39,892 nt of DNA from Actinomycetes bacterium (lineage in GTDB: Bacteria > Actinomycetota > CADDZG01 > JAHWKV01). The notes under the pieces were generated by a model, which had not been told where the DNA came from, did no database searches, and saw only the letters and a program-made list of their open reading frames with translations. The DNA is taken from NCBI GenBank assembly GCA_029263035.1, contig JAJCYF010000057.1, positions 1-39,892 of the forward strand. The letters are read 5' to 3'. Of this stretch, positions 20,433 to 38,239 are shown one piece after another (within the stretch, counting starts at the first letter, position 1; each line of letters begins with the position of its first letter). A program made the position numbers and the translations under genes.

Positions 20433-21584
20433 ATGATGTTCCTGTTCCCGGTGGCGGCCGCCATCACATTCGGCGCCCTCTCCTGGGCGAATCTCAGGCG
20501 TTATGCGCCGTTCTGGGGACCGGCAGTACTGTTCTGGGCGCTGGCGATCGGCCGGGAGCCGTCGGTGATCTTTTTGATCCTGTTTCTGGTTCCCACCATT
20601 GTTCTGGGCGTTGCCGTCGCCCGCCACCGGCTGGCTCCGACGCCCTTTCTGCTTATGGCTCTCTCCGACATTGCGCTGGCCATCGCCTTTTCCATCTACC
20701 AATCCAAGACTGCACTTTGGACCCTGCCGGAGGTAGGAGGGTGGGGTTCGGGTGCCGGTCTGGCCGCCGGCGCCGCGATCCTGCGGCTGGGCGCCGCCGC
20801 CGACGTCGACGACCCCAAGGAGGGGGGACTGGTATCCGTGCCGTGGTGGCAGGGGGCAATGCTGGCCTACTGGGTGGGTGGACAGGGCGCTTCGGCCGCG
20901 GTCCTGGTGGTCGGCGGCATCCTTTTGTGGGGCGCGGCTGCCTACACCTCGCACTCCAACCTGTCGGCGCTTTCGCTGGCCGGAGGCGTCCTGGCCGTGG
21001 CCGCCGGCCTGGGAGGTGATCTGGCGGGGGTGATCGTGCTGGGGCTGGCGGGGACCGGCCTGGTGATGGGGGAGCGGGTGGTCTCGACCTGGATGGTTGC
21101 CATCCTTCCCTTGTCGCTGCTGACCCTGCTCACCCTTCCCGGCGGCCAGCTGATGGCCCTGGCCGCTCTGATCTTTCCCGGGGCCTGGGCCGCCATGTCG
21201 ACCCGGCTGAACACCGTCAAGCCGGCTGCCGAGGACGTTCCCTACCTGTCGTCGGCGGCAATGATGGTGGGAGTCGCCTACATTGCCGCGCTCGTTTCCC
21301 GGTTCGTGACCGGGCCGGGAGAGGTGGGCGAGGCCGGAATCCCGGTGGAGCTGATCAACGCGATCTGGCTGATTTATGGGGCAGGAATGGCGGCGATGGT
21401 GACCTTCTCCTTCGTCGGCAACCCGCAGGGCCTGAGTCTGGAGCCCCCGAGCGAGGGCCATTACTCCAAGTCGGAGCTGCTGCTTCCCAAGCTGCTCCCG
21501 CCGGTGGCGTGGTTCGGCTTCTTCGTGGCCGGCGTGGTCACCGCCCGGCTGTTGCTGGCCGGCTTCCGGACCGCCTTCCTCTAG
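20433..21584 (+). CDS. Multi-pass membrane protein, weakly NuoL/N/MrpD-like
   Basis: About 12-13 TM helices; LSDIALAIAFSIYQSKT and AILRLG resemble degenerate antiporter-like subunit segments. Confidence 0.6.
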   Translation: MMFLFPVAAAITFGALSWANLRRYAPFWGPAVLFWALAIGREPSVIFLILFLVPTIVLGVAVARHRLAPTPFLLMALSDIALAIAFSIYQSKTALWTLPEVGGWGSGAGLAAGAAILRLGAAADVDDPKEGGLVSVPWWQGAMLAYWVGGQGASAAVLVVGGILLWGAAAYTSHSNLSALSLAGGVLAVAAGLGGDLAGVIVLGLAGTGLVMGERVVSTWMVAILPLSLLTLLTLPGGQLMALAALIFPGAWAAMSTRLNTVKPAAEDVPYLSSAAMMVGVAYIAALVSRFVTGPGEVGEAGIPVELINAIWLIYGAGMAAMVTFSFVGNPQGLSLEPPSEGHYSKSELLLPKLLPPVAWFGFFVAGVVTARLLLAGFRTAFL

Positions 21585-21644
21585 GAGCCCCCGATTTCCC
21601 GAGGCCCCAACTCAGCGGCGGCCGAGGCCTCAGCCGGCCGTCAG

Positions 21645-23318
21645 GTGGAGCTGAGCCCTCCGGTCGGCCGGCGGCCGGTTGCGCTGCTGGTGCTTGCCGG
21701 TTGCGCCCTGGCGGTGGCAATGAATCCCTTGCTGGCCGCCAACCTCGACCGGCTTCCCGGAGATTCCGCCGACCGCATGTTCCAGGCCTGGCAGGTTGCG
21801 TGGAACGGATACGCCCTGCTTCACCAGCCCCTCGACCTGTTCGACTCGAACATCTACTGGCCCTTCGAGAACACGGTGGCCTTCTCCGACGCCCTGCTGG
21901 GCTTCACCCCGGCCGGCTTCATCGGGGCGGGAACCGAAGCCGCGCTCATCCGCTACAACCTGCTGTTCCTGTTCACCTATGCCTCGGCCTTCGTCGCGGC
22001 GGCGCTGCTGGCCCGGGAGCTGGGGGCCGGCTGGCCTGCGGCGGTGGTTGCCGGCGCGGCATTTGCGTTCGCGCCCTGGCGGCTGGCCCACCACAACCAT
22101 CTGCACGTGCTGGCGAGCGCACCGTTGGCGCTCAGCCTGTTCCTGCTGCTGCGTGGATATCGCAGACGGCGGCCCGGACTGGTCCTGTCCGGCTTCCTGG
22201 CGGCGACCTGGCAGGTGAGTCTGGGGTTCACCCTGGGACTCCAGGTCGCCTACCTGCTTGCGCTGCTCGGGGCGCTGTGGGGCGTCTACTGGTGGCGGAA
22301 ACGTCCGGAGGTGCCTCGCAGGGTCGTGGCCGCGACCGCAGCCGGGGCGCTGATCCTGGTGGCCTGGTCCGGGTTGCAGGCGTTTCCGTACCTGAAGGTG
22401 GTCGAGGAACATCCTCAGGTAAGACGGAGCGTTGACACCGTGAGGTTCTACTCTCCTCCGGCGGCAAGTTTTCTGACCGCCCCGCCCGAAAACCTGATCT
22501 GGGGCGATGCGACCGGCGCCCGGCGGGAGAGGATGGCATGGGCCCCCGAGATGGCGCTGTTTCCGGGGCTGACGATTGTGGCGCTTGCCCTGGCAGGCCT
22601 GGGGGCCTCCACCCTCTCCCGTCGCTGGCGGCTCGGTCTGGCGGCAGCAGTCGTTGGTTCGGCGGTTCTGGCCATGGGTTACTCGTTTTTGGGTGGAAGT
22701 CTCACCTATGGGTTGCTGCACAAGCTGCCCGGGTGGGCGTCGGTCCGCACCCCCGGCCGCCTGTTCACCGTCACCTCCCTCGCTCTGGCCTTGCTTGCCG
22801 GCGCCGGAGCCCACCGGCTGACGTCGGCGGCCGTTCGCAGGGCGGCCGGAACCGGCGGGCGGATCGCGGCGCTGGTGGTCCCGGCCCTGCTGACCGTCGC
22901 CCTGCTGGTGGAGGGATTCGGCTCGCCGGCCGGCGAGCTGGTTCGGCCTGAGCTGCGCCGGCTTCCTGACTCGGAGCCTCAAATGCATCTGCCCTCCGAA
23001 GACTTCGACGATGTCCGGTACCTGTTCTGGTCCATCGACGGGTTCCCCGAGATCGTCAACGGCTACTCCGGCTTCACCCCTGAGCTGCAGCTTTCCCTGC
23101 GGCAGGAGCTGGCGGGCTTTCCCGACGAGGCTACGGTTCAGCGCTTGAGCGACCTGGGAGTGCGTACGGTCGTCGTCCACAACGACCGTACCGGCGGGAC
23201 CCCGTGGGCCGGCGCGGATGACCGGCCCGTCGACGGGTTGCCGCTGGAGCGGTCGGAGCGGGGCCCCATGACGATCTATGAGCTGGAGCCGGGCGGCAAC
23301 CCGGGCGACGGCGGATGA
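21645..23318 (+). CDS. GT-C-fold (YfhO-like) membrane glycosyltransferase candidate
   Basis: FDSNIYWP, AFAFAPWR, VRTPGRL, IVNGYSGF, LGVRTVVVH; many TM helices. Confidence 0.7.
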   Translation: MELSPPVGRRPVALLVLAGCALAVAMNPLLAANLDRLPGDSADRMFQAWQVAWNGYALLHQPLDLFDSNIYWPFENTVAFSDALLGFTPAGFIGAGTEAALIRYNLLFLFTYASAFVAAALLARELGAGWPAAVVAGAAFAFAPWRLAHHNHLHVLASAPLALSLFLLLRGYRRRRPGLVLSGFLAATWQVSLGFTLGLQVAYLLALLGALWGVYWWRKRPEVPRRVVAATAAGALILVAWSGLQAFPYLKVVEEHPQVRRSVDTVRFYSPPAASFLTAPPENLIWGDATGARRERMAWAPEMALFPGLTIVALALAGLGASTLSRRWRLGLAAAVVGSAVLAMGYSFLGGSLTYGLLHKLPGWASVRTPGRLFTVTSLALALLAGAGAHRLTSAAVRRAAGTGGRIAALVVPALLTVALLVEGFGSPAGELVRPELRRLPDSEPQMHLPSEDFDDVRYLFWSIDGFPEIVNGYSGFTPELQLSLRQELAGFPDEATVQRLSDLGVRTVVVHNDRTGGTPWAGADDRPVDGLPLERSERGPMTIYELEPGGNPGDGG

Positions 23319-24613
23319 GCCGGGCGCACCGGCGGCCGGCATCGCGCGGACTGGCCCTGGGCATGGCCGCGGCGGGAATAGTGGCCGCGTTTGCTCTCAA
23401 GTTCCAGTGTGTCGCCAACGGCTGGGGCGACGGCTACCAGTACACCCACCTGTGCTACAACGAGATCCAGGCGTTGTTCGGGGTACGCGGCATCCAGGAC
23501 GGCCTGCTTCCGTACCGGGATACCGCCTTCGAGTACCCGGTTCTGACCGGTATGTTCATGGACCTGGCGGGCAGGGTGCTGCGGGGGCTGGTCGCCATCG
23601 GCCTGGCGCCGCAGAACAACGACAGTAGCTATCTGGTGGTGTCGTCGGTGATGCTTGCTCCGTTCTCGGTTGGGGTGACCCTCCTGCTGAGGCCGCGGGT
23701 GAGCGCTTCCCGGCTGGCGCTGTGGGCGGTGGGAGCCCCCACGATCCTGTACACGTTCCACAACTGGGACATCCTCGCCGTGTTCGGTGCGGCCTGGGGC
23801 CTGGCCGCGTTCGAGCGGGACCGCCTGGGACTGGCCGGCGGCGCCCTGGCGGTGGGTGCCAGCGCCAAGCTGTACCCGGCCTTCCTGGCGCCGGGGATGG
23901 TCCTGGCCCGGTGGGCCCGGAAGGACCGGCTGGGGTCCGTGCGGATGATTGCCGGATTTCTGGCGGTGTATGCCGCGCTTAACGTGCCCTGGATCCTGAT
24001 CGCCAACGGGCCGCCGCAGGTCTCACCAGGGGCCTTTCCCGGGGTTGACCTGCGGGACCCGCAGGCCAACGGATGGCTGGGCGTCTGGCTTTTCCACGCC
24101 GAACGCAGCCCCGATATCTGGACCATCTGGTTCTGGTTGGGAGACCGTGCCGACGGGCTGTTCCTCAACCCCTGGTGGGGCGGTTCGTACCGCGGATTTG
24201 TGAGCATTACCAGCTTTGTTCTGTTCGCCCTCGCCACCGCCTACGCCCTGCTCCACGGCTGGAAGCGCCGCAACGAACCGCAGGGGTACCCGGTGGTAGG
24301 GGTGGGCCTGGCGATCGTCGCGGCCTTTCTCATCACCTCCAAGGTGTACTCACCGCAGTACGCCCTGTGGGCGGTGCCGATGCTGGTGATGCTGGACATC
24401 CGGGTCCGGTGGGTTGTGATCTACTTCGTCTCCGAGTTCGCCGTCCTGGTCGCCGGCTTCGGATGGTTCACCGTCTTTGACGATCCCGATCCGGGCTGGA
24501 GGGCCCTGCTCGAGGTGGTGGTGGTGGCGCGGGCAGCGGTGTTGTGCGTGCTCTACTGGCGGGCGACCCGTGCCGTGAGGCTGCTGCCGGAAGCGCCGGG
24601 GAGCGCGGTTTAG
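23315..24613 (+). CDS. Glycosyltransferase family 87 (DUF2029, Rv0051-like)
   Basis: LCYNEI, EYPVLTG, NWDILAV, AKLYP, KVYSPQYALW. Confidence 0.85.
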   Translation: MSRAHRRPASRGLALGMAAAGIVAAFALKFQCVANGWGDGYQYTHLCYNEIQALFGVRGIQDGLLPYRDTAFEYPVLTGMFMDLAGRVLRGLVAIGLAPQNNDSSYLVVSSVMLAPFSVGVTLLLRPRVSASRLALWAVGAPTILYTFHNWDILAVFGAAWGLAAFERDRLGLAGGALAVGASAKLYPAFLAPGMVLARWARKDRLGSVRMIAGFLAVYAALNVPWILIANGPPQVSPGAFPGVDLRDPQANGWLGVWLFHAERSPDIWTIWFWLGDRADGLFLNPWWGGSYRGFVSITSFVLFALATAYALLHGWKRRNEPQGYPVVGVGLAIVAAFLITSKVYSPQYALWAVPMLVMLDIRVRWVVIYFVSEFAVLVAGFGWFTVFDDPDPGWRALLEVVVVARAAVLCVLYWRATRAVRLLPEAPGSAV

Positions 24614-28121: not shown

Positions 28122-28769
28122 ATGGGAGCGTTGATCCAAGCAATCATGCAGGGCGACGAGGCGACGGTGGCCGGGCTCGTGGAGTCGGATCGCCGGGTTG
28201 CCGAGGAAAGGGACGAGAACGGGGTCTCCGCCCTCATGCTGGCTCTTTACCGGGGTCAGACCGAAATCGCCGCAGTGGTCGCCGAGGCCAAGGGGTGGTT
28301 GGACGTTTTCGAAGCCGCCGCCATCGGTGACCCCGGGCGGTTGGAGATGGCCCTCAAGGAGAACCCCGAAGCCATCGGATCCTTCTCCGCCGACGGGTTC
28401 ACCGCCCTGCACTTCGCCGCCTTCTTCGGGCGCCGCCTTCCGGCGAACCTGCTCGTGCTGGCCGGCGCCGACGTCAACGCGGAGGCCCGCAACCCCAGCC
28501 GGGTCCGGCCGATTCACAGCGCGGTGGCCGGCCCCGACCCGATGATGGCGGAGATCCTGCTGGCCATGGGGGCCGACGTCAATGCCCAGCAGGAGGGGGG
28601 ATTTACCGCACTTCAGGCCGCGGCCAAGCAGGGCAACACCAAGCTGGTCGATCTGCTGCTGAGAGCCGATGCGGATCCCCGGATGGCCGCCGGTGACGGC
28701 CGCACCGCCGCCGATCTGGCCCGAACTGCCGGGCACGAGGCCCTGGCGGTCCGGCTGGAGGCTCGTTAG
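28122..28769 (+). CDS. Ankyrin-repeat protein
   Basis: GVSALMLA, GFTALHFAA, GADVNA, GFTALQAAA repeats. Confidence 0.9.
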   Translation: MGALIQAIMQGDEATVAGLVESDRRVAEERDENGVSALMLALYRGQTEIAAVVAEAKGWLDVFEAAAIGDPGRLEMALKENPEAIGSFSADGFTALHFAAFFGRRLPANLLVLAGADVNAEARNPSRVRPIHSAVAGPDPMMAEILLAMGADVNAQQEGGFTALQAAAKQGNTKLVDLLLRADADPRMAAGDGRTAADLARTAGHEALAVRLEAR

Positions 28770-30442
28770 GGCAAAGGGGCGTCGGTCTTGCGGGTGAAGC
28801 CGGATATCCAGCGGTAGCCGTAGCCGGGAATCCTCACGTTCTTATCGGCGATCTCATCCCCGGGCCCGCTGGATGGGTCGGCCAGCTGCACCTGGAGGTA
28901 CTCGGCATCGGTGCCGGCGAGTTTGCATAGATTGAGGTTGCGGGACTTGTCCGACAGGTTGTGCACCACCAGCACCAGGTTGGTCTCCCAGACGAACCGG
29001 TGCGCCAGGACGTCGTCATAGCCGGTTTCCAGCACCTCGACCGGTCCGTAGCCCACCGCCGTGCTCTGCCTGCGGACCTGAACCAGCCGGCGCATCCAGT
29101 GCAGCAACGAGTCCGGGTCATGCTGCTGGAGCCGCACGTTTACCTGCTTGGGCCCGAAGGGCTCTCCGGCCACGGGGCGGACGAGCTTGAACGACTCTCC
29201 GTTGGAGAAACCGCCGGTCTCGGAGTCGGTCCACTGCATCGGCGTGCGGGCGGGGAGGCGGTCGTCCAGGGTCATGTTGTCGCCCATGCCAATCTCGTCG
29301 CCGTAGTAGAGCATCGGCATGCCCGGGGTTGAGAAGGTAAGGCTGTACAGCAGTTCCAGCCGCTTGCGGTCTCCTTCGAAGATAGGTGCCAGTCGCCGGC
29401 GAATCCCCCGGCCGTAGATGCGCATGTCCTCTTCGGGGGCGAAGGCTTCGAACACCTTTTGTTTCATCTTCTCGTCCAGGGTGTCGAGGTTCAGCTCGTC
29501 GTGAAGCCGGGCGAAGTTCACCCAGCCGCACAGCTCGGGGACTGCAGGCAACTCTGCGAAGTAGTCGTGAAGCGGCTTGGCGGACCCAGTGGCGACGCTG
29601 GCCATCAGGGCGCCGTTCTGCATGAAGTTGAACAGCAGGTGAAGCTCGTGTCCTTTCCCGAAGAACCGGGCTATCTCATGCGGCGGCAGGTTCGCCTCTC
29701 CAAGCAGCACCGCATCCCCCCGCCGGCGCTTCACGAACAGGCAGAATTCCTCGAGCCACTCATGGTGCGGCTCGTTCGGCTTGCCGCTGACCCCTACGGT
29801 TTCGATCATGAACGGGGCCGCATCGAACCGGAAGCCGGCAACCCCCAGCTGCAGCCAGAAGCGCATGATCTGCATGATCTCCTCGCGCACCGCCGGGTTG
29901 GCGAGATTGAGGTCGGGCTGGAAGTTGTGGAACCGGTGGAAGTAGTACTGGCCGGTAGTGGAGTCCTGGGTCCAGTTCCGGTCCTGCAGACCGGGGAAGA
30001 TGATGGCCTCGGCCTCCTCGACCGGCTCGTCCGACCAGACGTACCAGTCCCGGTACTTGGAGTCCTTCGCGGAGCGCGAATCGACGAACCACGGGTGCTC
30101 CTCCGAGGTGTGGTTGACGACCAGGTCGATGATCACCCTGATCCCCCGCTCGTCGGCGGCGTGGATGAAGGCCACGAAGTCGCCCAGCGTTCCGTAGCGC
30201 GGGTCGACGGCGTAGTAGTCGGCGACGTCATAGCCGTCGTCTTCGCCCGGGGTCGGAAAGAACGGCATCATCCAAAGGCAGGTGACCCCGAGCGACTGCA
30301 GGTGGTCCAGTCGCTCGATCAGCCCGCGAAAGTCCCCGACGCCGTCGGCGTTGCTGTCCATGTAGGTCTCGACATCCAGCTCGTAGAGCACGGCGTTCTT
30401 CCACCACAGGTCACCGCTCTCCAGCCGGATGCCGGTGCTCAC
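28766..30442 (-). CDS. GH13 alpha-amylase family protein, trehalose synthase (TreS)-like
   Basis: DLVVNHTS, FRFDAAP, LLGEAN, LHDEL, YYGDEIGMG, RTPMQW. Confidence 0.88.
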   Translation of the reverse strand: MSTGIRLESGDLWWKNAVLYELDVETYMDSNADGVGDFRGLIERLDHLQSLGVTCLWMMPFFPTPGEDDGYDVADYYAVDPRYGTLGDFVAFIHAADERGIRVIIDLVVNHTSEEHPWFVDSRSAKDSKYRDWYVWSDEPVEEAEAIIFPGLQDRNWTQDSTTGQYYFHRFHNFQPDLNLANPAVREEIMQIMRFWLQLGVAGFRFDAAPFMIETVGVSGKPNEPHHEWLEEFCLFVKRRRGDAVLLGEANLPPHEIARFFGKGHELHLLFNFMQNGALMASVATGSAKPLHDYFAELPAVPELCGWVNFARLHDELNLDTLDEKMKQKVFEAFAPEEDMRIYGRGIRRRLAPIFEGDRKRLELLYSLTFSTPGMPMLYYGDEIGMGDNMTLDDRLPARTPMQWTDSETGGFSNGESFKLVRPVAGEPFGPKQVNVRLQQHDPDSLLHWMRRLVQVRRQSTAVGYGPVEVLETGYDDVLAHRFVWETNLVLVVHNLSDKSRNLNLCKLAGTDAEYLQVQLADPSSGPGDEIADKNVRIPGYGYRWISGFTRKTDAPLP

Positions 30443-31407
30443 CGGGCGCCTCCGATCCGGGGCAGCACCTTGTCACCGAAAAAGTCGATGAACTCCTCCT
30501 GGTTCCCGGCGACCTGGTGGACGTTGATGGTGGAGAAGCCCAGTTCGGCGTAACGCTCCAGGTTGTCGGCGTGCCAGGCGGCGTCGGACGAGATGTCGAC
30601 CGTCTTGACGACGTCTTCGGCCCGGATGAATTTGGCCGCCATATCGAAGTGTTCGGCCAGCCGGATGTCCTGCGCCAGCGGGCCGGGCAGCATGTTGCCC
30701 CGCCAGCTTTCCAGCGCCATCTTCTCCGCCGACTCGGTGTCTTCCGCCCAGCAGACGTGGACCTGCAGGAGCAGCGGCTTGTCCCCGCCCTGGTCGGCGA
30801 AAGCCTCGGCGATCGCTCGCAACTGCGGTTCGGGTTGGTTGACGGTGATCAGCCCGTCGGCCCAGGTGCCGGCCCACCTTGCGGTCTCCACCGACAGGGC
30901 GGCGCAGTACAGGGGAGGGGGCTTGGCCGGCAGCGACCAGATCTTCGCCTCGTGGACGGTGACCAGGCCGTCGTGGGTAACCCGCTCGCCGGCAAGCAGG
31001 CGCCGGATGACCGATACACACTCCGCCAGCCGGTCGTTGCGAACCGCCTTGGGGGGCCAGGGCCGGCCGGTGATGTGCTCGTTCATCGCCTCGCCCGAGC
31101 CGAGGGCGACCGAGAACCGCCCGGGGAACATCTCCTCCAGGGTGGCAATCGCCTGGGCGATGATCGCCGGATGGTACCGATCCCCCGGGGCGTTCACCAG
31201 GGTGAAGGGAAGGTCGGTGGCGTGCATGGCGGCACCCAGCCAGGCGAGGGCAAACCCGGACTCTCCTTGTTCGGCTCCCCACGGTTCGATGTGGTCGGAG
31301 GACTGCACCGCCTGGAACCCCGCACCGGCCGCACGGCGGGCCAGGGCCAAAAGGCGGGAGGGGGCAAACTGTTCGTGGGACGCGTGGTAACCAATCTTGA
31401 CGGGCAT
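30439..31407 (-). CDS. LLM-class oxidoreductase (TIGR03885-like)
   Basis: GYHASHEQF, SSDH, LGSGEAMNEHITG; overlaps the start of the GH13 gene. Confidence 0.88.
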   Translation of the reverse strand: MPVKIGYHASHEQFAPSRLLALARRAAGAGFQAVQSSDHIEPWGAEQGESGFALAWLGAAMHATDLPFTLVNAPGDRYHPAIIAQAIATLEEMFPGRFSVALGSGEAMNEHITGRPWPPKAVRNDRLAECVSVIRRLLAGERVTHDGLVTVHEAKIWSLPAKPPPLYCAALSVETARWAGTWADGLITVNQPEPQLRAIAEAFADQGGDKPLLLQVHVCWAEDTESAEKMALESWRGNMLPGPLAQDIRLAEHFDMAAKFIRAEDVVKTVDISSDAAWHADNLERYAELGFSTINVHQVAGNQEEFIDFFGDKVLPRIGGAR

Positions 31408-31642
31408 ACCGAACGGTTACCCGCTGCCGCCGCCACCCAACCCCCGCCCGAGGGAGACCGGTCTTAACAAACCGATGTCCGGCCGTTCACGGATGCGTTA
31501 CGGGCTCGTTCCCCGGTTGTCACAAGCCGCTTACCGATGCGTAACCGCGGCTGCCTAATCTCGTGAACATGGACAACCCGCAGGCGCCGCCTGGACGGGG
31601 GGTCCTCGGGGACAACGGGCATTCGCCCAAAAAGGAGGCCAC

Positions 31643-31717
31643 ATGCACTCGACCACGGATTCCATTTGCGACCGCCGGCCCCGCCGCCGGCGATGTTGGT
31701 GCCGCGTTGGTGGTTGA
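31643..31717 (+). CDS. Putative 24-aa leader peptide MHSTTDSICDRRPRRRRCWCRVGG
   Basis: AAGGAGG SD 4 nt before the ATG; stops 33 nt before the globin start. Confidence 0.4.
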   Translation: MHSTTDSICDRRPRRRRCWCRVGG

Positions 31718-31750
31718 TGCCCCACCGGGGCCTGAAAGGGGACTTTGAGC

Positions 31751-32860
31751 ATGGCAATGCGACGAGAAGATGAAGAGTTCGAAGGCACCACGCTGAACCT
31801 GAGCCCGCTGCTTATGCCGGTGGGCTCGACCGTTACTGCCGACTTCCACCCGCTGGCCGACTTCGCCGGTTTCGGAGAGTACGAGGCCATGGCGGTCGCG
31901 GACACCGGTGAGGACATCGCCTACCTGGCGGACGGACTCGCCGGCGACATTGCCGGCTACCTGGCCGAACGGCCGGAGATTTCGGAGCTCATGCGGTCCG
32001 TGCCCGAACCGGTCGACGTCGCCAAGATCAAGGAGTGGCTGACGGTCACGAGCCAGGGACCACATGACGGTGCGATGTCGGCTTATCTGCGTGAGGCGTC
32101 GCATCTTCCCGGGGGCGGGGCGACCTTTCCCGGGCTGGCCATGGCCCTGCCGCCTCAGATGCTGATCGCATTGGTCGGCTGGGTGGAGGGAAAGATCCTC
32201 GAGGCCCTCGCCGAGGTGAGCGACGAGAGCACGCTGACCGCAGTCGGCGGCGCCTGGATGAATCTGATGATGCTGCAGCTGTGCATCTTCGTCGAGCCGT
32301 ACCTGGAGGAGCCGACGGGGCCGATGAACCACTCGGGCGCCGCCGAGTTTCACCCGTTCGCGGACTTTGCCGGGTTCGGAGTATCGGAGAGCCGGATCCT
32401 AAAGGAGACCGGTCCGCTGCTGGAGCCGGCCGCCGGCGGGGTGATTGCGCTGGCGTACAACTACCTGTTGACCAGGCCGGAGTCGGCGAAGTACTTCGAC
32501 GAGGACGCCCACCTGGCCCAGCGCAAGAAGACGCTCAAAGCCTGGTGGATCCGCAGCACCACCCAGCCGATGGACGGCAAGTTCCACGACTACATGTCGA
32601 AGGTGGCCGACGCCCACGTGCCGGGCGGCGGTACCCATCCGCACGTGGTGATCCCCGCCGACCTGACCATCGCCCTCATGGGCTGGGTGCAGATGCGGGT
32701 GATGACCGCCCTCAACACGATCAGCCTGGACCCCGGCGGCTCGTACGTCTTCGGAACCATGGGCGAGCCGGCCGACACCGCCAACGTGGGCCGGGCCTGG
32801 ATGCGCATGCTGACGCTGCAGCTTGGCATCCTGATGGAGCCCTACCTGTCGAAGAAGTAA
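31751..32860 (+). CDS. Tandem two-domain protoglobin-family protein
   Basis: Internal duplication FHPxADFAGFG...AWMxxxxLQLxIxxEPYL; domain 2 has AYNYL (B-helix Tyr) and YMSKVADAH (proximal His). Confidence 0.78.
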   Translation: MAMRREDEEFEGTTLNLSPLLMPVGSTVTADFHPLADFAGFGEYEAMAVADTGEDIAYLADGLAGDIAGYLAERPEISELMRSVPEPVDVAKIKEWLTVTSQGPHDGAMSAYLREASHLPGGGATFPGLAMALPPQMLIALVGWVEGKILEALAEVSDESTLTAVGGAWMNLMMLQLCIFVEPYLEEPTGPMNHSGAAEFHPFADFAGFGVSESRILKETGPLLEPAAGGVIALAYNYLLTRPESAKYFDEDAHLAQRKKTLKAWWIRSTTQPMDGKFHDYMSKVADAHVPGGGTHPHVVIPADLTIALMGWVQMRVMTALNTISLDPGGSYVFGTMGEPADTANVGRAWMRMLTLQLGILMEPYLSKK

Positions 32861-32878
32861 CCGACCGCGCTCAATTGG

Positions 32879-32906
32879 GGGTCCGGGGAAACCCGGACCC
32901 TCTTTT
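32879..32906 (+). terminator. Intrinsic terminator after the globin gene
   Basis: GGGTCCGGG-GAAA-CCCGGACCC followed by TCTTTT. Confidence 0.8.
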
Positions 32907-32932
32907 GGTGCGGGCCTGCAAGAATTCTCTGC

Positions 32933-33484
32933 ATGAAGCCCTGGCTGGTAGTCGTGTGCGGACCTTCCGGGGGCGGTAAGTCCTCGATCGCCGGGCGCCT
33001 GTCGGAACGCCTGAACATTCCGTTGATCGGCAAGGACGAGTTGAAAGAGGTGCTGTTCGACAGCCTGGGATGGGGGGACCGGGAGCAGAGCCGGAAGTTG
33101 AGCGATGCCGCCTACGAGCTGATGTTCCACCTCGCCGAAAGGCACCTGGCAACGGGCAGTTCGTGCATCCTGGAGGCGAACTTCCGGCCCGAAATGGCCG
33201 AGAGGCTGGCCGCTCTGGCCGAGACCGGCCCGTTAAACGCGGTGACCGTCCGCTGCTCCGCCGATCCGCAGGTGCTGCGGGAACGCCTGAGGCTCAGGGC
33301 CGAGCAGGGGCTGCGCCACCCCGGCCACCTGGACGCTGAGTTGCTGGCGGAGGTCGAAGGTTTGATCGGCGAGGGGTCGGTGGAGCTCGGGGGACCGCTG
33401 CTGGAGGTGGACACGACCGAACCGTCGAGGGTCAACATCGAAGAAATCGCCAGACGGGTCAGGGATTTGACCGGTCGCACATAA
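32933..33484 (+). CDS. P-loop small-molecule kinase (AAA_33-like)
   Basis: GPSGGGKS Walker A, ILEANF, RxxxR lid, RHPGHLD. Confidence 0.85.
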   Translation: MKPWLVVVCGPSGGGKSSIAGRLSERLNIPLIGKDELKEVLFDSLGWGDREQSRKLSDAAYELMFHLAERHLATGSSCILEANFRPEMAERLAALAETGPLNAVTVRCSADPQVLRERLRLRAEQGLRHPGHLDAELLAEVEGLIGEGSVELGGPLLEVDTTEPSRVNIEEIARRVRDLTGRT

Positions 33485-33585
33485 AAAAGGGACCTTGAAC
33501 CGGGCCAAAGCTACAGCGGTCCGCGGGAGGCGGGGGCGATTATGACCTCACTCCGACCCGGTTCAAGATCCGGTACTTGTTGCCC
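33483..33585 (-). ncRNA. Putative sRNA A: long hairpin with C-rich loop and U6 tail, sigma28-type promoter
   Basis: Stem of about 25 bp whose mismatches become G-U pairs only on the minus strand; loop CCCCCGCCUCCC; TTAT-N15-GCCGATAT promoter at 33617-33591. Confidence 0.65.
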
Positions 33586-33683
33586 CATCTATATCGGCAG
33601 GAAGCCGCCGGCGATAAGCACTATTCGTGAATATCATCACTGAGAGTGGTAGGAAAGGTGGCTCAAGCGGCGAGCGAGCCTGG

Positions 33684-33768
33684 AGTAAACAGAGGCCGGA
33701 CCCGAGTGATCGCTGGGGGGCGGGGGTTGTAGTCCACACTCGGGTCCGGCCATCTGAATTTGTTGCTG
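33684..33768 (-). ncRNA. Putative sRNA B: hairpin with C-rich loop, sigma28-type promoter
   Basis: Perfect 15-bp stem 33694-33708/33737-33751; loop CCCCCGCCCCCC; TTAA-N15-GCCGATAA promoter at 33801-33775. Confidence 0.62.
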
Positions 33769-33832
33769 CTCTACTTATCGGCAGAAACTTAACATCGTTA
33801 ACCTGTCATTTCAAAATTGTTCGGTAACCCGG

Positions 33833-33860
33833 GGAACTTGGGTGCGGGGTTCGTCCGTCA
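33833..33860 (+). promoter_or_regulatory. ECF (SigM-type) promoter for the DUF4349 gene
   Basis: GGAAC-N18-CGTCA. Confidence 0.45.
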
Positions 33861-33917
33861 AATGGCCATTCAATCCATGAGCCTAGAACTATGAGCCCTA
33901 GACCAAGGAGCCGGGAA

Positions 33918-34916
33918 ATGCGGAAACGACTGATCGCAGGGATGGCGTTGCTGAGTCTGCTTATTCTGGCGGCCGCCTGCAGCCGGGGCGACGATAGTGC
34001 ACAGACCGAGCTCTCCGGACCGGTCAGGGGTGAGGCGCCCGCCGAGTCATCGGCAGAGGATGGCAAGCTGGCGGCCCCCGACGCCCCCACTGCCGACACG
34101 GATGTGACTCGAGGCGGCTCCGGTGGGAGCGGCGGCGGGGACGGAGGTGGGAGCGGTGCTTTTGCCGGGACTACCAGCGGAGGATCGGATCAAGCGTCCC
34201 TGCCGGGCATCCCGGAGGTTCCGCCGGCCGGCAGCGGGCGGGTTATCAAGAACATCTCGCTGGAGATCGAAGTCAAAGAGGACCAGTTCCAGCGCCAGTT
34301 CAGCCGGGCAGGATCGCTGGCGGAGCAGTTCGGGGGGTTCGTGACCAACTCGCAGGTGAGCGAGACGGACGGCGAGCTGTCCTCCGGCACGCTGACCGTC
34401 CGGGTTCCCTCGGATCGTTTCGAGGAGGCGGTCGGCCGGCTGAAGGACCTGGGCAAGGTGACTGCCGAGGATCGTAGCGGGCAGGACGTTACCAAGCAGT
34501 TCGTCGACCTGGAGGCCCGGCTCAAGCAGGCCAAAGCGGAGGAGGCCTTCTTCCTGCGCCTGATGGACGAGGCCGAAGGCATCTCCGACATGATCCAGGT
34601 GCAAAGCCACCTCTCCGGCGTCCAGCTACGCATCGAGGAGATCCAGGGACAGCTCAACTTCCTGAGAGATCAGACCGCCCTGTCCACCATCTCGGTCCGG
34701 GTTTATGAGCCGGGCGCCCCGGCGTCGGGCAATCCCCAGCCGCTGACCGAGGCGTGGGAGGGTGCGATCGACGGATTCCAGTCGGTGATCGGCAGCCTGG
34801 TGGTGGCGGTCGGGTGGCTGGCGCCCTTCGGATTGATCGCGCTTGCCGGGTTGTTCGTGCTGAAGCTCCGCAACCGGCCGAAGGTGGAGCCGGCGGCGGA
34901 TCCGCCTGCGGCGTAA
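33918..34916 (+). CDS. DUF4349-domain lipoprotein
   Basis: Lipobox LAAAC, Gly-rich linker, LTVRVP, QDVTKQFVDLEARL, C-terminal TM; AGGAG SD. Confidence 0.88.
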   Translation: MRKRLIAGMALLSLLILAAACSRGDDSAQTELSGPVRGEAPAESSAEDGKLAAPDAPTADTDVTRGGSGGSGGGDGGGSGAFAGTTSGGSDQASLPGIPEVPPAGSGRVIKNISLEIEVKEDQFQRQFSRAGSLAEQFGGFVTNSQVSETDGELSSGTLTVRVPSDRFEEAVGRLKDLGKVTAEDRSGQDVTKQFVDLEARLKQAKAEEAFFLRLMDEAEGISDMIQVQSHLSGVQLRIEEIQGQLNFLRDQTALSTISVRVYEPGAPASGNPQPLTEAWEGAIDGFQSVIGSLVVAVGWLAPFGLIALAGLFVLKLRNRPKVEPAADPPAA

Positions 34917-37175: not shown

Positions 37176-37291
37176 ATGGGACTCTAATCAACTGGGTCAA
37201 GTGCTAAGACTTTCTGGGGCAGCGAGAGCGGGGGAACCCAGTCGCGCGTGACCCAAGGCGTTTCCCCCTGCCCGCGGCTACGATGGGAATC

Positions 37292-38239
37292 ATGGACATA
37301 GGCGTCTTCATCGCGGCCGAGCCGCACGAGCGGGGTCCGGCCGAGGACCTGCACGAGATGATCGACCTGGCCCAGGCGGTCGAGGAGCTCGGCTACCGAT
37401 CGCTGTACACCGCATCCCGCCACTTCTCCTCCGGCTACGCCGCGGTGCCCTCCCCACTGGTGCTGTTCGCCGCAGTCGCCGAGCGGACCACCACCCTGGA
37501 GTTCGGCCCCTCGGTGATCACCCTTCCTTTGGAGAACCTGCACCGTCTGGCAGAGGACTTCGCCACGCTGGACGCGATCTCCGGGGGCCGCGCCATCCTG
37601 GGGGTGGGAAGCGGGGACGACCCGCCGGCCTTCGAGGCGATGGGGGTCGAGTTCGACGAGCGCGCCGGGATGCTCTCGCAGAACATCGGCGGATTCCTGG
37701 AGATCCTGCAGGGCGGCGATGCCGGGGCGGGCCTCACGCTCTACCCGCCCATCGACAACCCCCTGGACAAGGTGGCGCTGGGTGCGCAGTCGGCGCGGGG
37801 TGCGTCGTGGGCGGCGTCGTTGGGCATCGGCCTGCAGCAGGGCCGCTCCGAGCCCAACAGCTGGGACCCGACGGTCTCCCAGGTCCGGGCCGCCGAGGCC
37901 TACCGGGCGGTCCACCCCAACGGCCGCATCTCCACCGCCCGCAACGCCTGGATCGGCTCTCCCGACGACCCCGATTTGTGGGAGGGCATCCGCCGACACG
38001 ATGAGTTTCTCAAGGCCCGGGGACGCGCCGGGCTCCCGGAGGATCGCACAGAGGCCCTTCGCAAGATGAACATCCGGACCGGTACACCGGAGGGTCTGGC
38101 CATCGACCTCAAGGGAGCGGTGGCCTCCATCAAGCCCGATGAGCTGTTGATCACCGCCGACCCGGGCGGCCTGGAGGCATCGGACCGGCTGAAGCGCCTG
38201 ACCGCCCTGGCAGAGGCCTTCGGTCTCGGAGACCGCTAG
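37292..38239 (+). CDS. LLM-class flavin-dependent oxidoreductase
   Basis: AVEELGY, SRHF, PSPLVL, RLAEDFATLDAISGGR, LGVGSG; TACGAT -10 lies 7 nt before the ATG. Confidence 0.88.
   Translation: MDIGVFIAAEPHERGPAEDLHEMIDLAQAVEELGYRSLYTASRHFSSGYAAVPSPLVLFAAVAERTTTLEFGPSVITLPLENLHRLAEDFATLDAISGGRAILGVGSGDDPPAFEAMGVEFDERAGMLSQNIGGFLEILQGGDAGAGLTLYPPIDNPLDKVALGAQSARGASWAASLGIGLQQGRSEPNSWDPTVSQVRAAEAYRAVHPNGRISTARNAWIGSPDDPDLWEGIRRHDEFLKARGRAGLPEDRTEALRKMNIRTGTPEGLAIDLKGAVASIKPDELLITADPGGLEASDRLKRLTALAEAFGLGDR

Follow-up and report, generated by a model that had tools for sequence, protein, structure and literature searches.

How many haems does a globin chain carry when two protoglobin domains are joined in it and no other domain follows, and what would the additional domain do? 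This question is raised by a tandem protoglobin gene in a stretch of 39,892 nucleotides from an Actinomycetes bacterium (GenBank assembly GCA_029263035.1, contig JAJCYF010000057.1, positions 1 to 39,892 of the forward strand), which as a whole is called the window here. We lean, with moderate confidence, to the reading that two protoglobin units are paired asymmetrically in a single chain, with the one canonical haem held in domain 2 and with domain 1 as a selected and retuned partner. The gene and the layout of its product are as follows.

31734 to 31741, forward strand: Shine-Dalgarno-like GAAAGGGG, read from the sequence, 9 bases before the ATG.
31751 to 32860, forward strand: tandem protoglobin gene, 369 amino acids plus stop codon, by the list of open reading frames (ORFs), a G+C content at third codon positions (GC3) of 0.88, a Pfam PF11563 score of 109.5 bits and the starts of homologues.
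31751 to 31825, forward strand: variable N-terminal tail, predicted to be disordered (model residues 1-25; predicted local distance difference test, pLDDT, below 50; poorly conserved columns).
31829 to 32314, forward strand: domain 1, divergent protoglobin domain (residues 29-190), by PF11563 (33 bits) and VIA-align (Z 12.9).
32315 to 32338, forward strand: inter-domain linker TGPMNHSG, without regular secondary structure in the model and placed by the profile boundaries.
32339 to 32857, forward strand: domain 2, canonical protoglobin/sensor-globin domain (residues 199-371), by PF11563 (80.8 bits) and VIA-align (Z 13.0-13.7).

In the present study, residues are counted from an in-frame TTG at 31745, which is the mechanical start of the ORF, and numbers based on the ATG at 31751 are lower by 2. 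The ATG is the likely start because the N-termini of homologues read MAMRRED..., and this agrees with a preliminary description of the same DNA, which had begun the gene at 31751. The overlapping frames failed the filter on GC3 and its second-position counterpart (GC2) that was applied to the tandem protoglobin ORF. The preliminary description had also seen two protoglobin domains in tandem, and the Pfam check on each half matched both of them above the curated cut-off of 25 bits, the N half (residues 33-189) with 33.0 bits (E 7.5e-8) and the C half with 80.8 bits (E 1.5e-22), each covering positions 4-155 of the 158 in the PF11563 Protoglobin profile. In addition, BLASTP of one half against the other gave 59 identities in 181 positions (33%, E 4e-28), and the family profiles of the two halves aligned over 158 columns with 99.9% probability (E 4.5e-33). 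Both alignments lie far beyond chance, and the internal repeat is therefore real. An output domain had been thought absent, and indeed the Pfam scan of the whole protein gave no family besides Protoglobin above its cut-off; an MHB row stayed below threshold (13.6 bits against a cut-off of 27.4). No NCBIfam family covered the protein. The two globin domains account for all residues after the disordered tail, with no C-terminal transmitter domain such as a methyl-accepting chemotaxis protein (MCP), kinase, GGDEF or similar module.

The fold of both halves was assessed with an AlphaFold2 model built from a 117-row alignment, which reached a mean pLDDT of 88.2 and a predicted template modelling score (pTM) of 0.88, with only residues 1-25 below 50. 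The best Foldseek rows were the protoglobins of M. acetivorans (MaPgb) and A. pernix (ApPgb) and the globin domains of GsGCS, AfGcHK and HemAT; with the whole two-domain model as query, Foldseek gave no row at E≤0.001. In VIA-align, domain 2 (model residues 198-366) matched AfGcHK (5ohe_A) over 151 residues with Z 13.7 and a root-mean-square deviation (rmsd) of 2.1, and its Z values against 5ohe_A, 2w31_A and 2veb ranged over 13.0-13.7. Domain 1 (model residues 24-182) matched HemAT (1or4_B), also over 151 residues, with Z 12.9 and rmsd 2.3. Owing to these matches, both halves are predicted to be complete sensor-type 3-on-3 globin folds. The high pTM further suggests that the two domains are held in a fixed mutual arrangement in the model, and they might pack in the manner of the protoglobin homodimer, through the G and H helices. 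Before helix A, both domains open with a (D/E)FHPxADFAGFG motif (window 31833-31877 and 32342-32386); its His is invariant in domain 2 (His203), and in domain 1 it is found only in the subclade of the window protein, most other relatives having Ala.

The haem pocket was then read column by column, and the codon positions of the pocket residues were verified against the window DNA. Family counts refer to 121 sequences, namely the query and the best 120 of 241 proteins found by a word-indexed search at E≤1e-3. These best 120 relatives are 321-406 residues long, all carry PF11563, and they are named only as 'protoglobin domain-containing' or 'hypothetical'. For domain 2, three positions are decisive.

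32456 to 32458, forward strand: Tyr238, distal Tyr B10 column, aligned with Tyr61 of MaPgb, present in 121/121.
32495 to 32497, forward strand: Phe251, CD1 column, aligned with Phe74 of MaPgb, present in 121/121.
32615 to 32617, forward strand: His291, proximal His F8 column, aligned with His93 of 2w31 and His120 of MaPgb, present in 121/121.

We take His120 of MaPgb and His93 of 2w31 to be the F8 residues; the names B9, B10 and E11 follow the titles of Protein Data Bank (PDB) entries. In the profile alignments, Ala237-Tyr238 of domain 2 correspond to Trp60-Tyr61 of MaPgb (B9-B10), and Leu264, likewise in 121/121, to Phe93 (E11). Tyr238 lies in the motif AYNYL and His291 in YMSKVADAH. The domain-2 profile matched 15 solved globins in the PDB, the best being the Geobacter sensor globin 2w31_A (5.9e-7) and MaPgb (2.8e-4). 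By all sequence criteria applied, domain 2 is haem-competent, as had been proposed, its pocket residues being invariant throughout the 121 sequences, and the iron of such a pocket would be expected to take up O2, CO or NO as ligand. MaPgb (2VEB and its mutants) and ApPgb (7UTE) belong to the same Pfam family as the tandem protoglobin and share with it an N-terminal extension before helix A. Aligned with domain 2 over 166 residues (Z 13.0), MaPgb has Tyr-B10, Phe-CD1 and His-F8 at matching columns and differs in having Trp-B9 and Phe-E11 where domain 2 has Ala237 and Leu264. The distal pair of Tyr-B10 and Leu-E11 presumably resembles that of AfGcHK.

The same columns are altered in domain 1.

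31952 to 31954, forward strand: Ala70 in the Tyr-B10 column, from the alignments, codon checked.
31991 to 31993, forward strand: Met83 in the Phe-CD1 column, codon checked.
32102 to 32104, forward strand: His120 in the proximal-His F8 column, with a 2-residue deletion before the His relative to domain 2.

The residues at B9, B10, CD1, E11 and F8 are thus Ile69, Ala70, Met83, Ile95 and His120. The motif IAGYL places Ala70 in the B10 column, and YLREASH sets His120 opposite His291, the F helix being two residues shorter than that of domain 2 with the gap directly before the His. All four motifs quoted in the preliminary description (AYNYL, YMSKVADAH, IAGYL and YLREASH) are present, and it was right about the loss of Tyr and the shift by two residues; the loss of Phe-CD1 is an addition to its motif reading. 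These changes extend over the family. The B10 column of domain 1 holds Ser in 84 sequences, Ala in 15, Thr in 9, Cys in 5, Val in 4 and Phe in 2, with Tyr not among these six commonest residues, and the CD1 column holds Met (87), Leu (19), Ile (7), Val (4), Thr (3) and Phe (1). At F8, His occurs in 100 sequences and is replaced in the other 21 by Gln (14), Arg (5), Ala (1) or Lys (1). In the family tree, built from all 121 sequences, domain 1 switches between His and another residue at this position at least 8 times, and one protein with Ala at this position (P0006) is nevertheless 72-73% identical to the window protein. Since the His is present in only 100/121, it is not a constrained feature of domain 1. 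Other elements are conserved in domain 1 specifically, namely Arg116, four residues before the His, in 117/121, and the TFPG and LPPQ motifs. When searched against the PDB sequences, the domain-1 profile gave no match at E≤10.

The two domains have also evolved unequally. Mean pairwise identity is 0.666 for domain 1 against 0.823 for domain 2, and domain 1 has the lower value in 7244 of the 7260 pairs; of 162 columns in domain 1, 15 are invariant, and of 170 in domain 2, 54. The median ratio of nonsynonymous to synonymous substitution rates (dN/dS) over 865 pairs with dS≤1.5 is 0.243 for domain 1 against 0.157 for domain 2, with domain 1 higher in 817 of them, and for the closest pair it is about 0.075 in both domains. 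Both domains are therefore under purifying selection, and domain 1 evolves faster and is not decaying. Domain 1, which the preliminary description had called degenerate, is indeed the divergent half in all of the family, and 21 of the 121 sequences do without its His, but the word is too strong for a domain that is under selection, keeps its fold and its own invariant motifs, and in a sister clade (described below) nearly always has its His.

The origin of the pair was traced in a domain tree that combined 15 rows each for domain 1 and domain 2 with 12 single-domain relatives; 14 of 46 aligned family members and both halves of P0128 were sampled for it, and only a midpoint root was used. Domain-1 sequences form one clade (support 100/99), and domain-2 sequences form another (99/94), which also holds a long-branched protein of 214 residues (P0164). 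A further split (98/94) sets these two clades together apart from the remaining 11 single-domain proteins. The domain-1 and domain-2 subtrees have a similar branching order, with domain-1 branches about twice as long. This pattern fits a fusion by one in-frame internal duplication followed by unequal divergence.

Several observations weigh against the preferred reading of a probably monocistronic gene whose product has one canonical haem in domain 2. His120 is present in the window protein and its column is His in 100 of the 121 close relatives, and the pocket columns Ile69, Met83 and Ile95 stay hydrophobic, which would suit haem or another ligand. The dN/dS values are rough, as dS is near 1. 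Furthermore, the terminator-like hairpin that follows the gene (given below) is a consensus match only, with 2 such sites in the region against 1.6 expected from shuffles. The remaining points come from a sister group of two-domain proteins around P0123, which has 54 relatives at E≤1e-20; counts for it refer to 46 aligned sequences of at least 300 residues, P0128 and P0131 included. In this group domain 1 retains its His in 45/46, and domain 2 is the one without His in 7/46 (four have Gln, one has Asp and two a deletion) and without part of the E-helix region in 11/46. A THV motif is also retained in domain 1 of the sister group (P0123, P0181-P0189, P0128 and P0131). Because the His of domain 1 is kept there and domain 2 is sometimes damaged, some family members at least may hold haem in domain 1. 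The asymmetry runs in both directions across the family, and the domain-1 His clearly matters in some members.

This sister-clade pattern is the main evidence for the strongest alternative, according to which both domains bind haem at two non-equivalent sites, the Tyr-B10 pocket of domain 2 and an open distal pocket with Ala or Ser at B10 in domain 1, the latter with different affinity or redox chemistry. Such a two-haem chain could sense cooperatively or over two ranges, or it could provide a site for catalysis. The alternative gains from the His shared by the window protein, its close relatives and the sister clade, from the full fold of domain 1 (Z 12.9 to haem-bound HemAT), and from its hydrophobic pocket columns and purifying selection. 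However, in proteins that are otherwise alike that His gave way to Gln, Arg, Lys or Ala on at least eight occasions, hardly any family member has Phe-CD1 or Tyr-B10 in domain 1, the F helix is shortened by 2 residues at the His, and globin profiles recognise domain 1 weakly, with 33 bits in Pfam and no PDB sequence match. We consider two haems fairly unlikely but by no means a negligible prospect. If both halves do bind haem, the protein would be a two-site globin with built-in non-equivalence, which is still a new sensor-globin architecture, though a less unusual one. As for tandem protoglobins being common with equivalent halves, a case that the preliminary description had held against itself, the family is indeed sizeable and not a one-off, but its halves are never equivalent.

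A second alternative is that domain 1 is a non-haem ligand-binding globin of the RsbR or Bacillus anthracis type, which would take up some small molecule, hydrophobic or anionic, and act as a modulator of the haem domain. Non-haem globins of the sensor lineage do exist, as the consulted portion of PMC8717448 states for the N-domain of RsbR and a fatty-acid-binding sensor of B. anthracis. Domain 1 has invariant residues of its own (Arg116 and the TFPG and LPPQ motifs), and the substitutes in its His column are polar (Gln, Arg, Lys), both of which would suit such a function. On the other hand, no RsbR-type or other non-haem globin was among the fold and sequence matches listed, the fold lists being filled mostly by domain 2, and a ligand is not inferable from sequence. 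We regard this alternative as very unlikely. Globins of this type serve as a model for what domain 1 may have become; they gave up the haem histidines, whereas domain 1 of the window protein still has its His, which 21 of the 121 relatives are without.

In the reading that we prefer, with one canonical haem in domain 2, an ancestral single-domain protoglobin would have been duplicated in frame and the copies would have diverged unequally. The product would be a soluble, stand-alone protein. Its domain 2 would be an ordinary haem-b sensor-type globin with His291 as proximal ligand, Tyr238 at B10, Leu264 at E11 and Phe251 at CD1. Domain 1 keeps the fold and is still selected, with the distal Tyr and the CD1 Phe gone, the F helix two residues shorter and a His that it does not need in the clade of the window. 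It might take the place of the second subunit in the usual homodimer of protoglobins and sensor globins, as a structural or regulatory partner that is either haem-free or holds a differently tuned ligand. Candidate roles for the whole protein would be that of a sensor which signals via a partner protein, or that of a redox enzyme for small molecules. The architecture and its asymmetry, the origin by one duplication and the narrow distribution are shown by the results, and the haem stoichiometry, the dimer-like packing and the gas binding are inferred. Of the interpretation in the preliminary description, the two protoglobin domains, the missing output domain, the haem-competent domain 2 and the divergent domain 1 are thus supported, and the covalent pseudo-dimer, a domain 1 that lacks haem and the function as gas sensor or carrier are proposals. 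In an extended version of the scheme, which we think quite unlikely, the protein would be the first natural single-chain asymmetric sensor globin, in which a haem-free domain 1 has replaced the second subunit and is a built-in output or regulatory surface; ligand binding at the single haem would be read from a change at the interface of the two domains and not by a transmitter domain. In the hydrogen-oxidising soil actinobacteria with this gene, hydrogenase maturation, whose genes adjoin many orthologues, may in this way be coupled to the O2 or NO status.

Compared with known systems, the architecture stands apart in several respects. The solved chains of MaPgb and ApPgb are single-domain proteins of about 195 residues, whereas the tandem protoglobin has two domains in 369 residues, of which only one retains the pocket residues. 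In structure, both domains come closest to AfGcHK (5OHE), GsGCS (2W31) and HemAT (1OR4), with Z 13.7, 13.6 and 12.9, and 2W31 is also the best sequence match for domain 2; however, globin-coupled sensors carry a C-terminal transmitter (kinase, MCP or similar), and the second module of the tandem protoglobin is another globin. Multi-unit truncated haemoglobins of bacteria, with tandem globin units in one chain, were reportedly treated by Hade et al. in 2017 (IUBMB Life). Those proteins belong to the 2-on-2 family, whereas a 3-on-3 sensor-family fold is predicted here. In the sections of PMC7475203 used here, they are cited as the bacterial precedent for tandem globin units. Within the parts of PMC1457004 and PMC7475203 that were available, protoglobins are described as single-domain proteins of about 195 residues, and no cellular role is given for them. 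In the full-text literature no description of a two-domain protoglobin was found, the supplementary genome tables of PMC1457004 lying outside that scope; the 'two protoglobin' of PMC12442639 are, in the portion consulted, two separate HemAT receptors and no tandem protein. MaPgb, the best-studied protoglobin, is a dimer with allosteric, two-state ligand-binding kinetics, according to the part of PMC3313925 that we drew on. A natural fusion of two protoglobins with one canonical pocket is a ready-made heterodimer for studying allostery of this type, as one site can be mutated alone, which would show the contribution of the partner subunit.

The distribution of the family is restricted. Among 1.84 billion cluster representatives, 60 matched at E≤1e-3, of which 12 reached E≤1e-30; apart from fragments and a few divergent two-domain forms, they amount in essence to a single large cluster of full-length proteins. 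The Atlas clusters matched were the own cluster of the tandem protoglobin and clusters of single-domain protoglobins only. In contigs from one genome per species, relatives are encoded in 87 stretches, of which 80 were kept for the counts of loci. Each of the 80 belongs to a metagenome-assembled genome, with titles such as Pseudonocardiaceae, Pseudonocardiales or Actinomycetota, and no cultured strain is among them. The assembly of the window (2.51 Mb, 251 contigs, 81% complete) has a single copy of the gene. The full-length protein was matched in 11 of 113 genomes of the window's class, all of them inside its order, and in 2 of 401 genomes drawn across Actinomycetota. In this phylum sample, 40 of the 401 genomes had some PF11563 match, and two matches in one frame occurred only in the genome of the window; the other tandem carrier (G101) reached the threshold by domain 2 alone. 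As the carriers are sparse but related, the architecture is rare and the family coherent. It is an unstudied family from uncultured soil and groundwater Actinomycetota.

In some loci a gene of each subfamily is present, the two standing tail to tail (L066:4400-6612, L068:1058-2576 and L072:1132-3408, and likewise in G108 and G110), and in L072 domain 2 of the second copy is shortened. Extra upstream protoglobin-like ORFs in 16 loci were an artefact of single-linkage clustering, and profile searches left the 3 adjacent second copies in L066, L068 and L072.

With respect to genomic context, the window lies near the origin of an actinobacterial chromosome, with parA, parB, trxB, murJ, the gene of the CCA-adding enzyme, ino1, rpsF-ssb-rplI and dnaB. 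The neighbours of the tandem gene encode an ankyrin-repeat protein, an enzyme of the alpha-amylase family and a divergent TIGR03885 oxidoreductase, and downstream follow a P-loop kinase-like AAA_33 protein (32933-33484), a DUF4349 protein and dCTP deaminase. Only the two closest relatives (L001 and L002) share this arrangement. Between the tandem gene and the AAA_33 gene lies one further element.

32877 to 32912, forward strand: terminator-like hairpin of 11 pairs, 9 of them G-C, with a T-rich tail.

Because this hairpin with its T tail separates the genes, the tandem gene is probably transcribed alone, as a monocistronic unit. An operon with the AAA_33 gene was rejected, since the hairpin separates the two and their pairing recurs only in L001 and L002. 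A link to the divergent TIGR03885 oxidoreductase is disfavoured, as L001 does not have the oxidoreductase gene at the corresponding position. The promoter scan gave no sigma-70-like site on the forward strand upstream of the tandem gene, and the Rfam scan of 31000-34000 gave no element at E≤1.

A different neighbourhood is seen in the larger clade, labelled Pseudonocardiaceae. There the tandem protoglobin gene is usually preceded by genes for a GMC oxidoreductase, a 5'-3' exonuclease and an M24 peptidase, in this order, and followed by convergent hypB-hypA and divergent hypF, which are hydrogenase maturation genes. HypB, HypA and HypF and their order were confirmed by Pfam in one locus (L015, 7522-10964), with comparable positions in about 30 other loci. 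Of the 80 related loci, 31 have a HypB-like ORF, which is always encoded on the opposite strand. It lies within 3 kb downstream in 13 of the 33 loci where a protoglobin ORF was called and the downstream flank measures at least 3 kb, and in five of these 13 it is only 13-35 bases away. In the window's order, 11 genomes carry the tandem gene, and 9 of them have a hydrogenase large subunit over the Pfam cut-off; of the 16 genomes that do not carry it, 7 have such a subunit. These tallies include the unpublished genomes G099, G104, G111 and G112. That the family works with aerobic [NiFe]-hydrogenases, for example in O2 sensing or buffering for hydrogenase maturation, draws on these adjacencies and tallies, but it is highly improbable, since the tandem and hyp genes converge and do not form one operon, the syntenic loci are mutually related so that the counts are not independent, hydrogenase and tandem gene lie on different contigs in the genomes of the order, and the window has housekeeping neighbours without hyp genes in a genome (81% complete) where the large subunit (PF00374) was not found. 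The association with hydrogenase is thus a lead and not a finding. Many Actinomycetota of the type that carries the gene have aerobic hydrogenases, and the family may hint at how trace-gas oxidisers handle O2 or NO.

Some further observations were made on the other genes of the window. The ankyrin-repeat protein (28122-28769, forward strand) has 215 residues and matches Ank_2 with E 5.6e-20, and it adjoins the protoglobin region in L001 and L002 also. Three consecutive ORFs of 383, 557 and 432 amino acids (20433-24613, forward strand), with strong coding composition, lie between a DUF5318 gene and rpsF, and gave no Pfam match at E≤1e-3 or better. The divergent neighbour of the tandem gene (30439-31407, reverse strand) is a TIGR03885 'flavin_revert' FMN-dependent luciferase-like oxidoreductase, with 460 bits against a cut-off of 398.7, and a second luciferase-like gene is present at 37283-38239.

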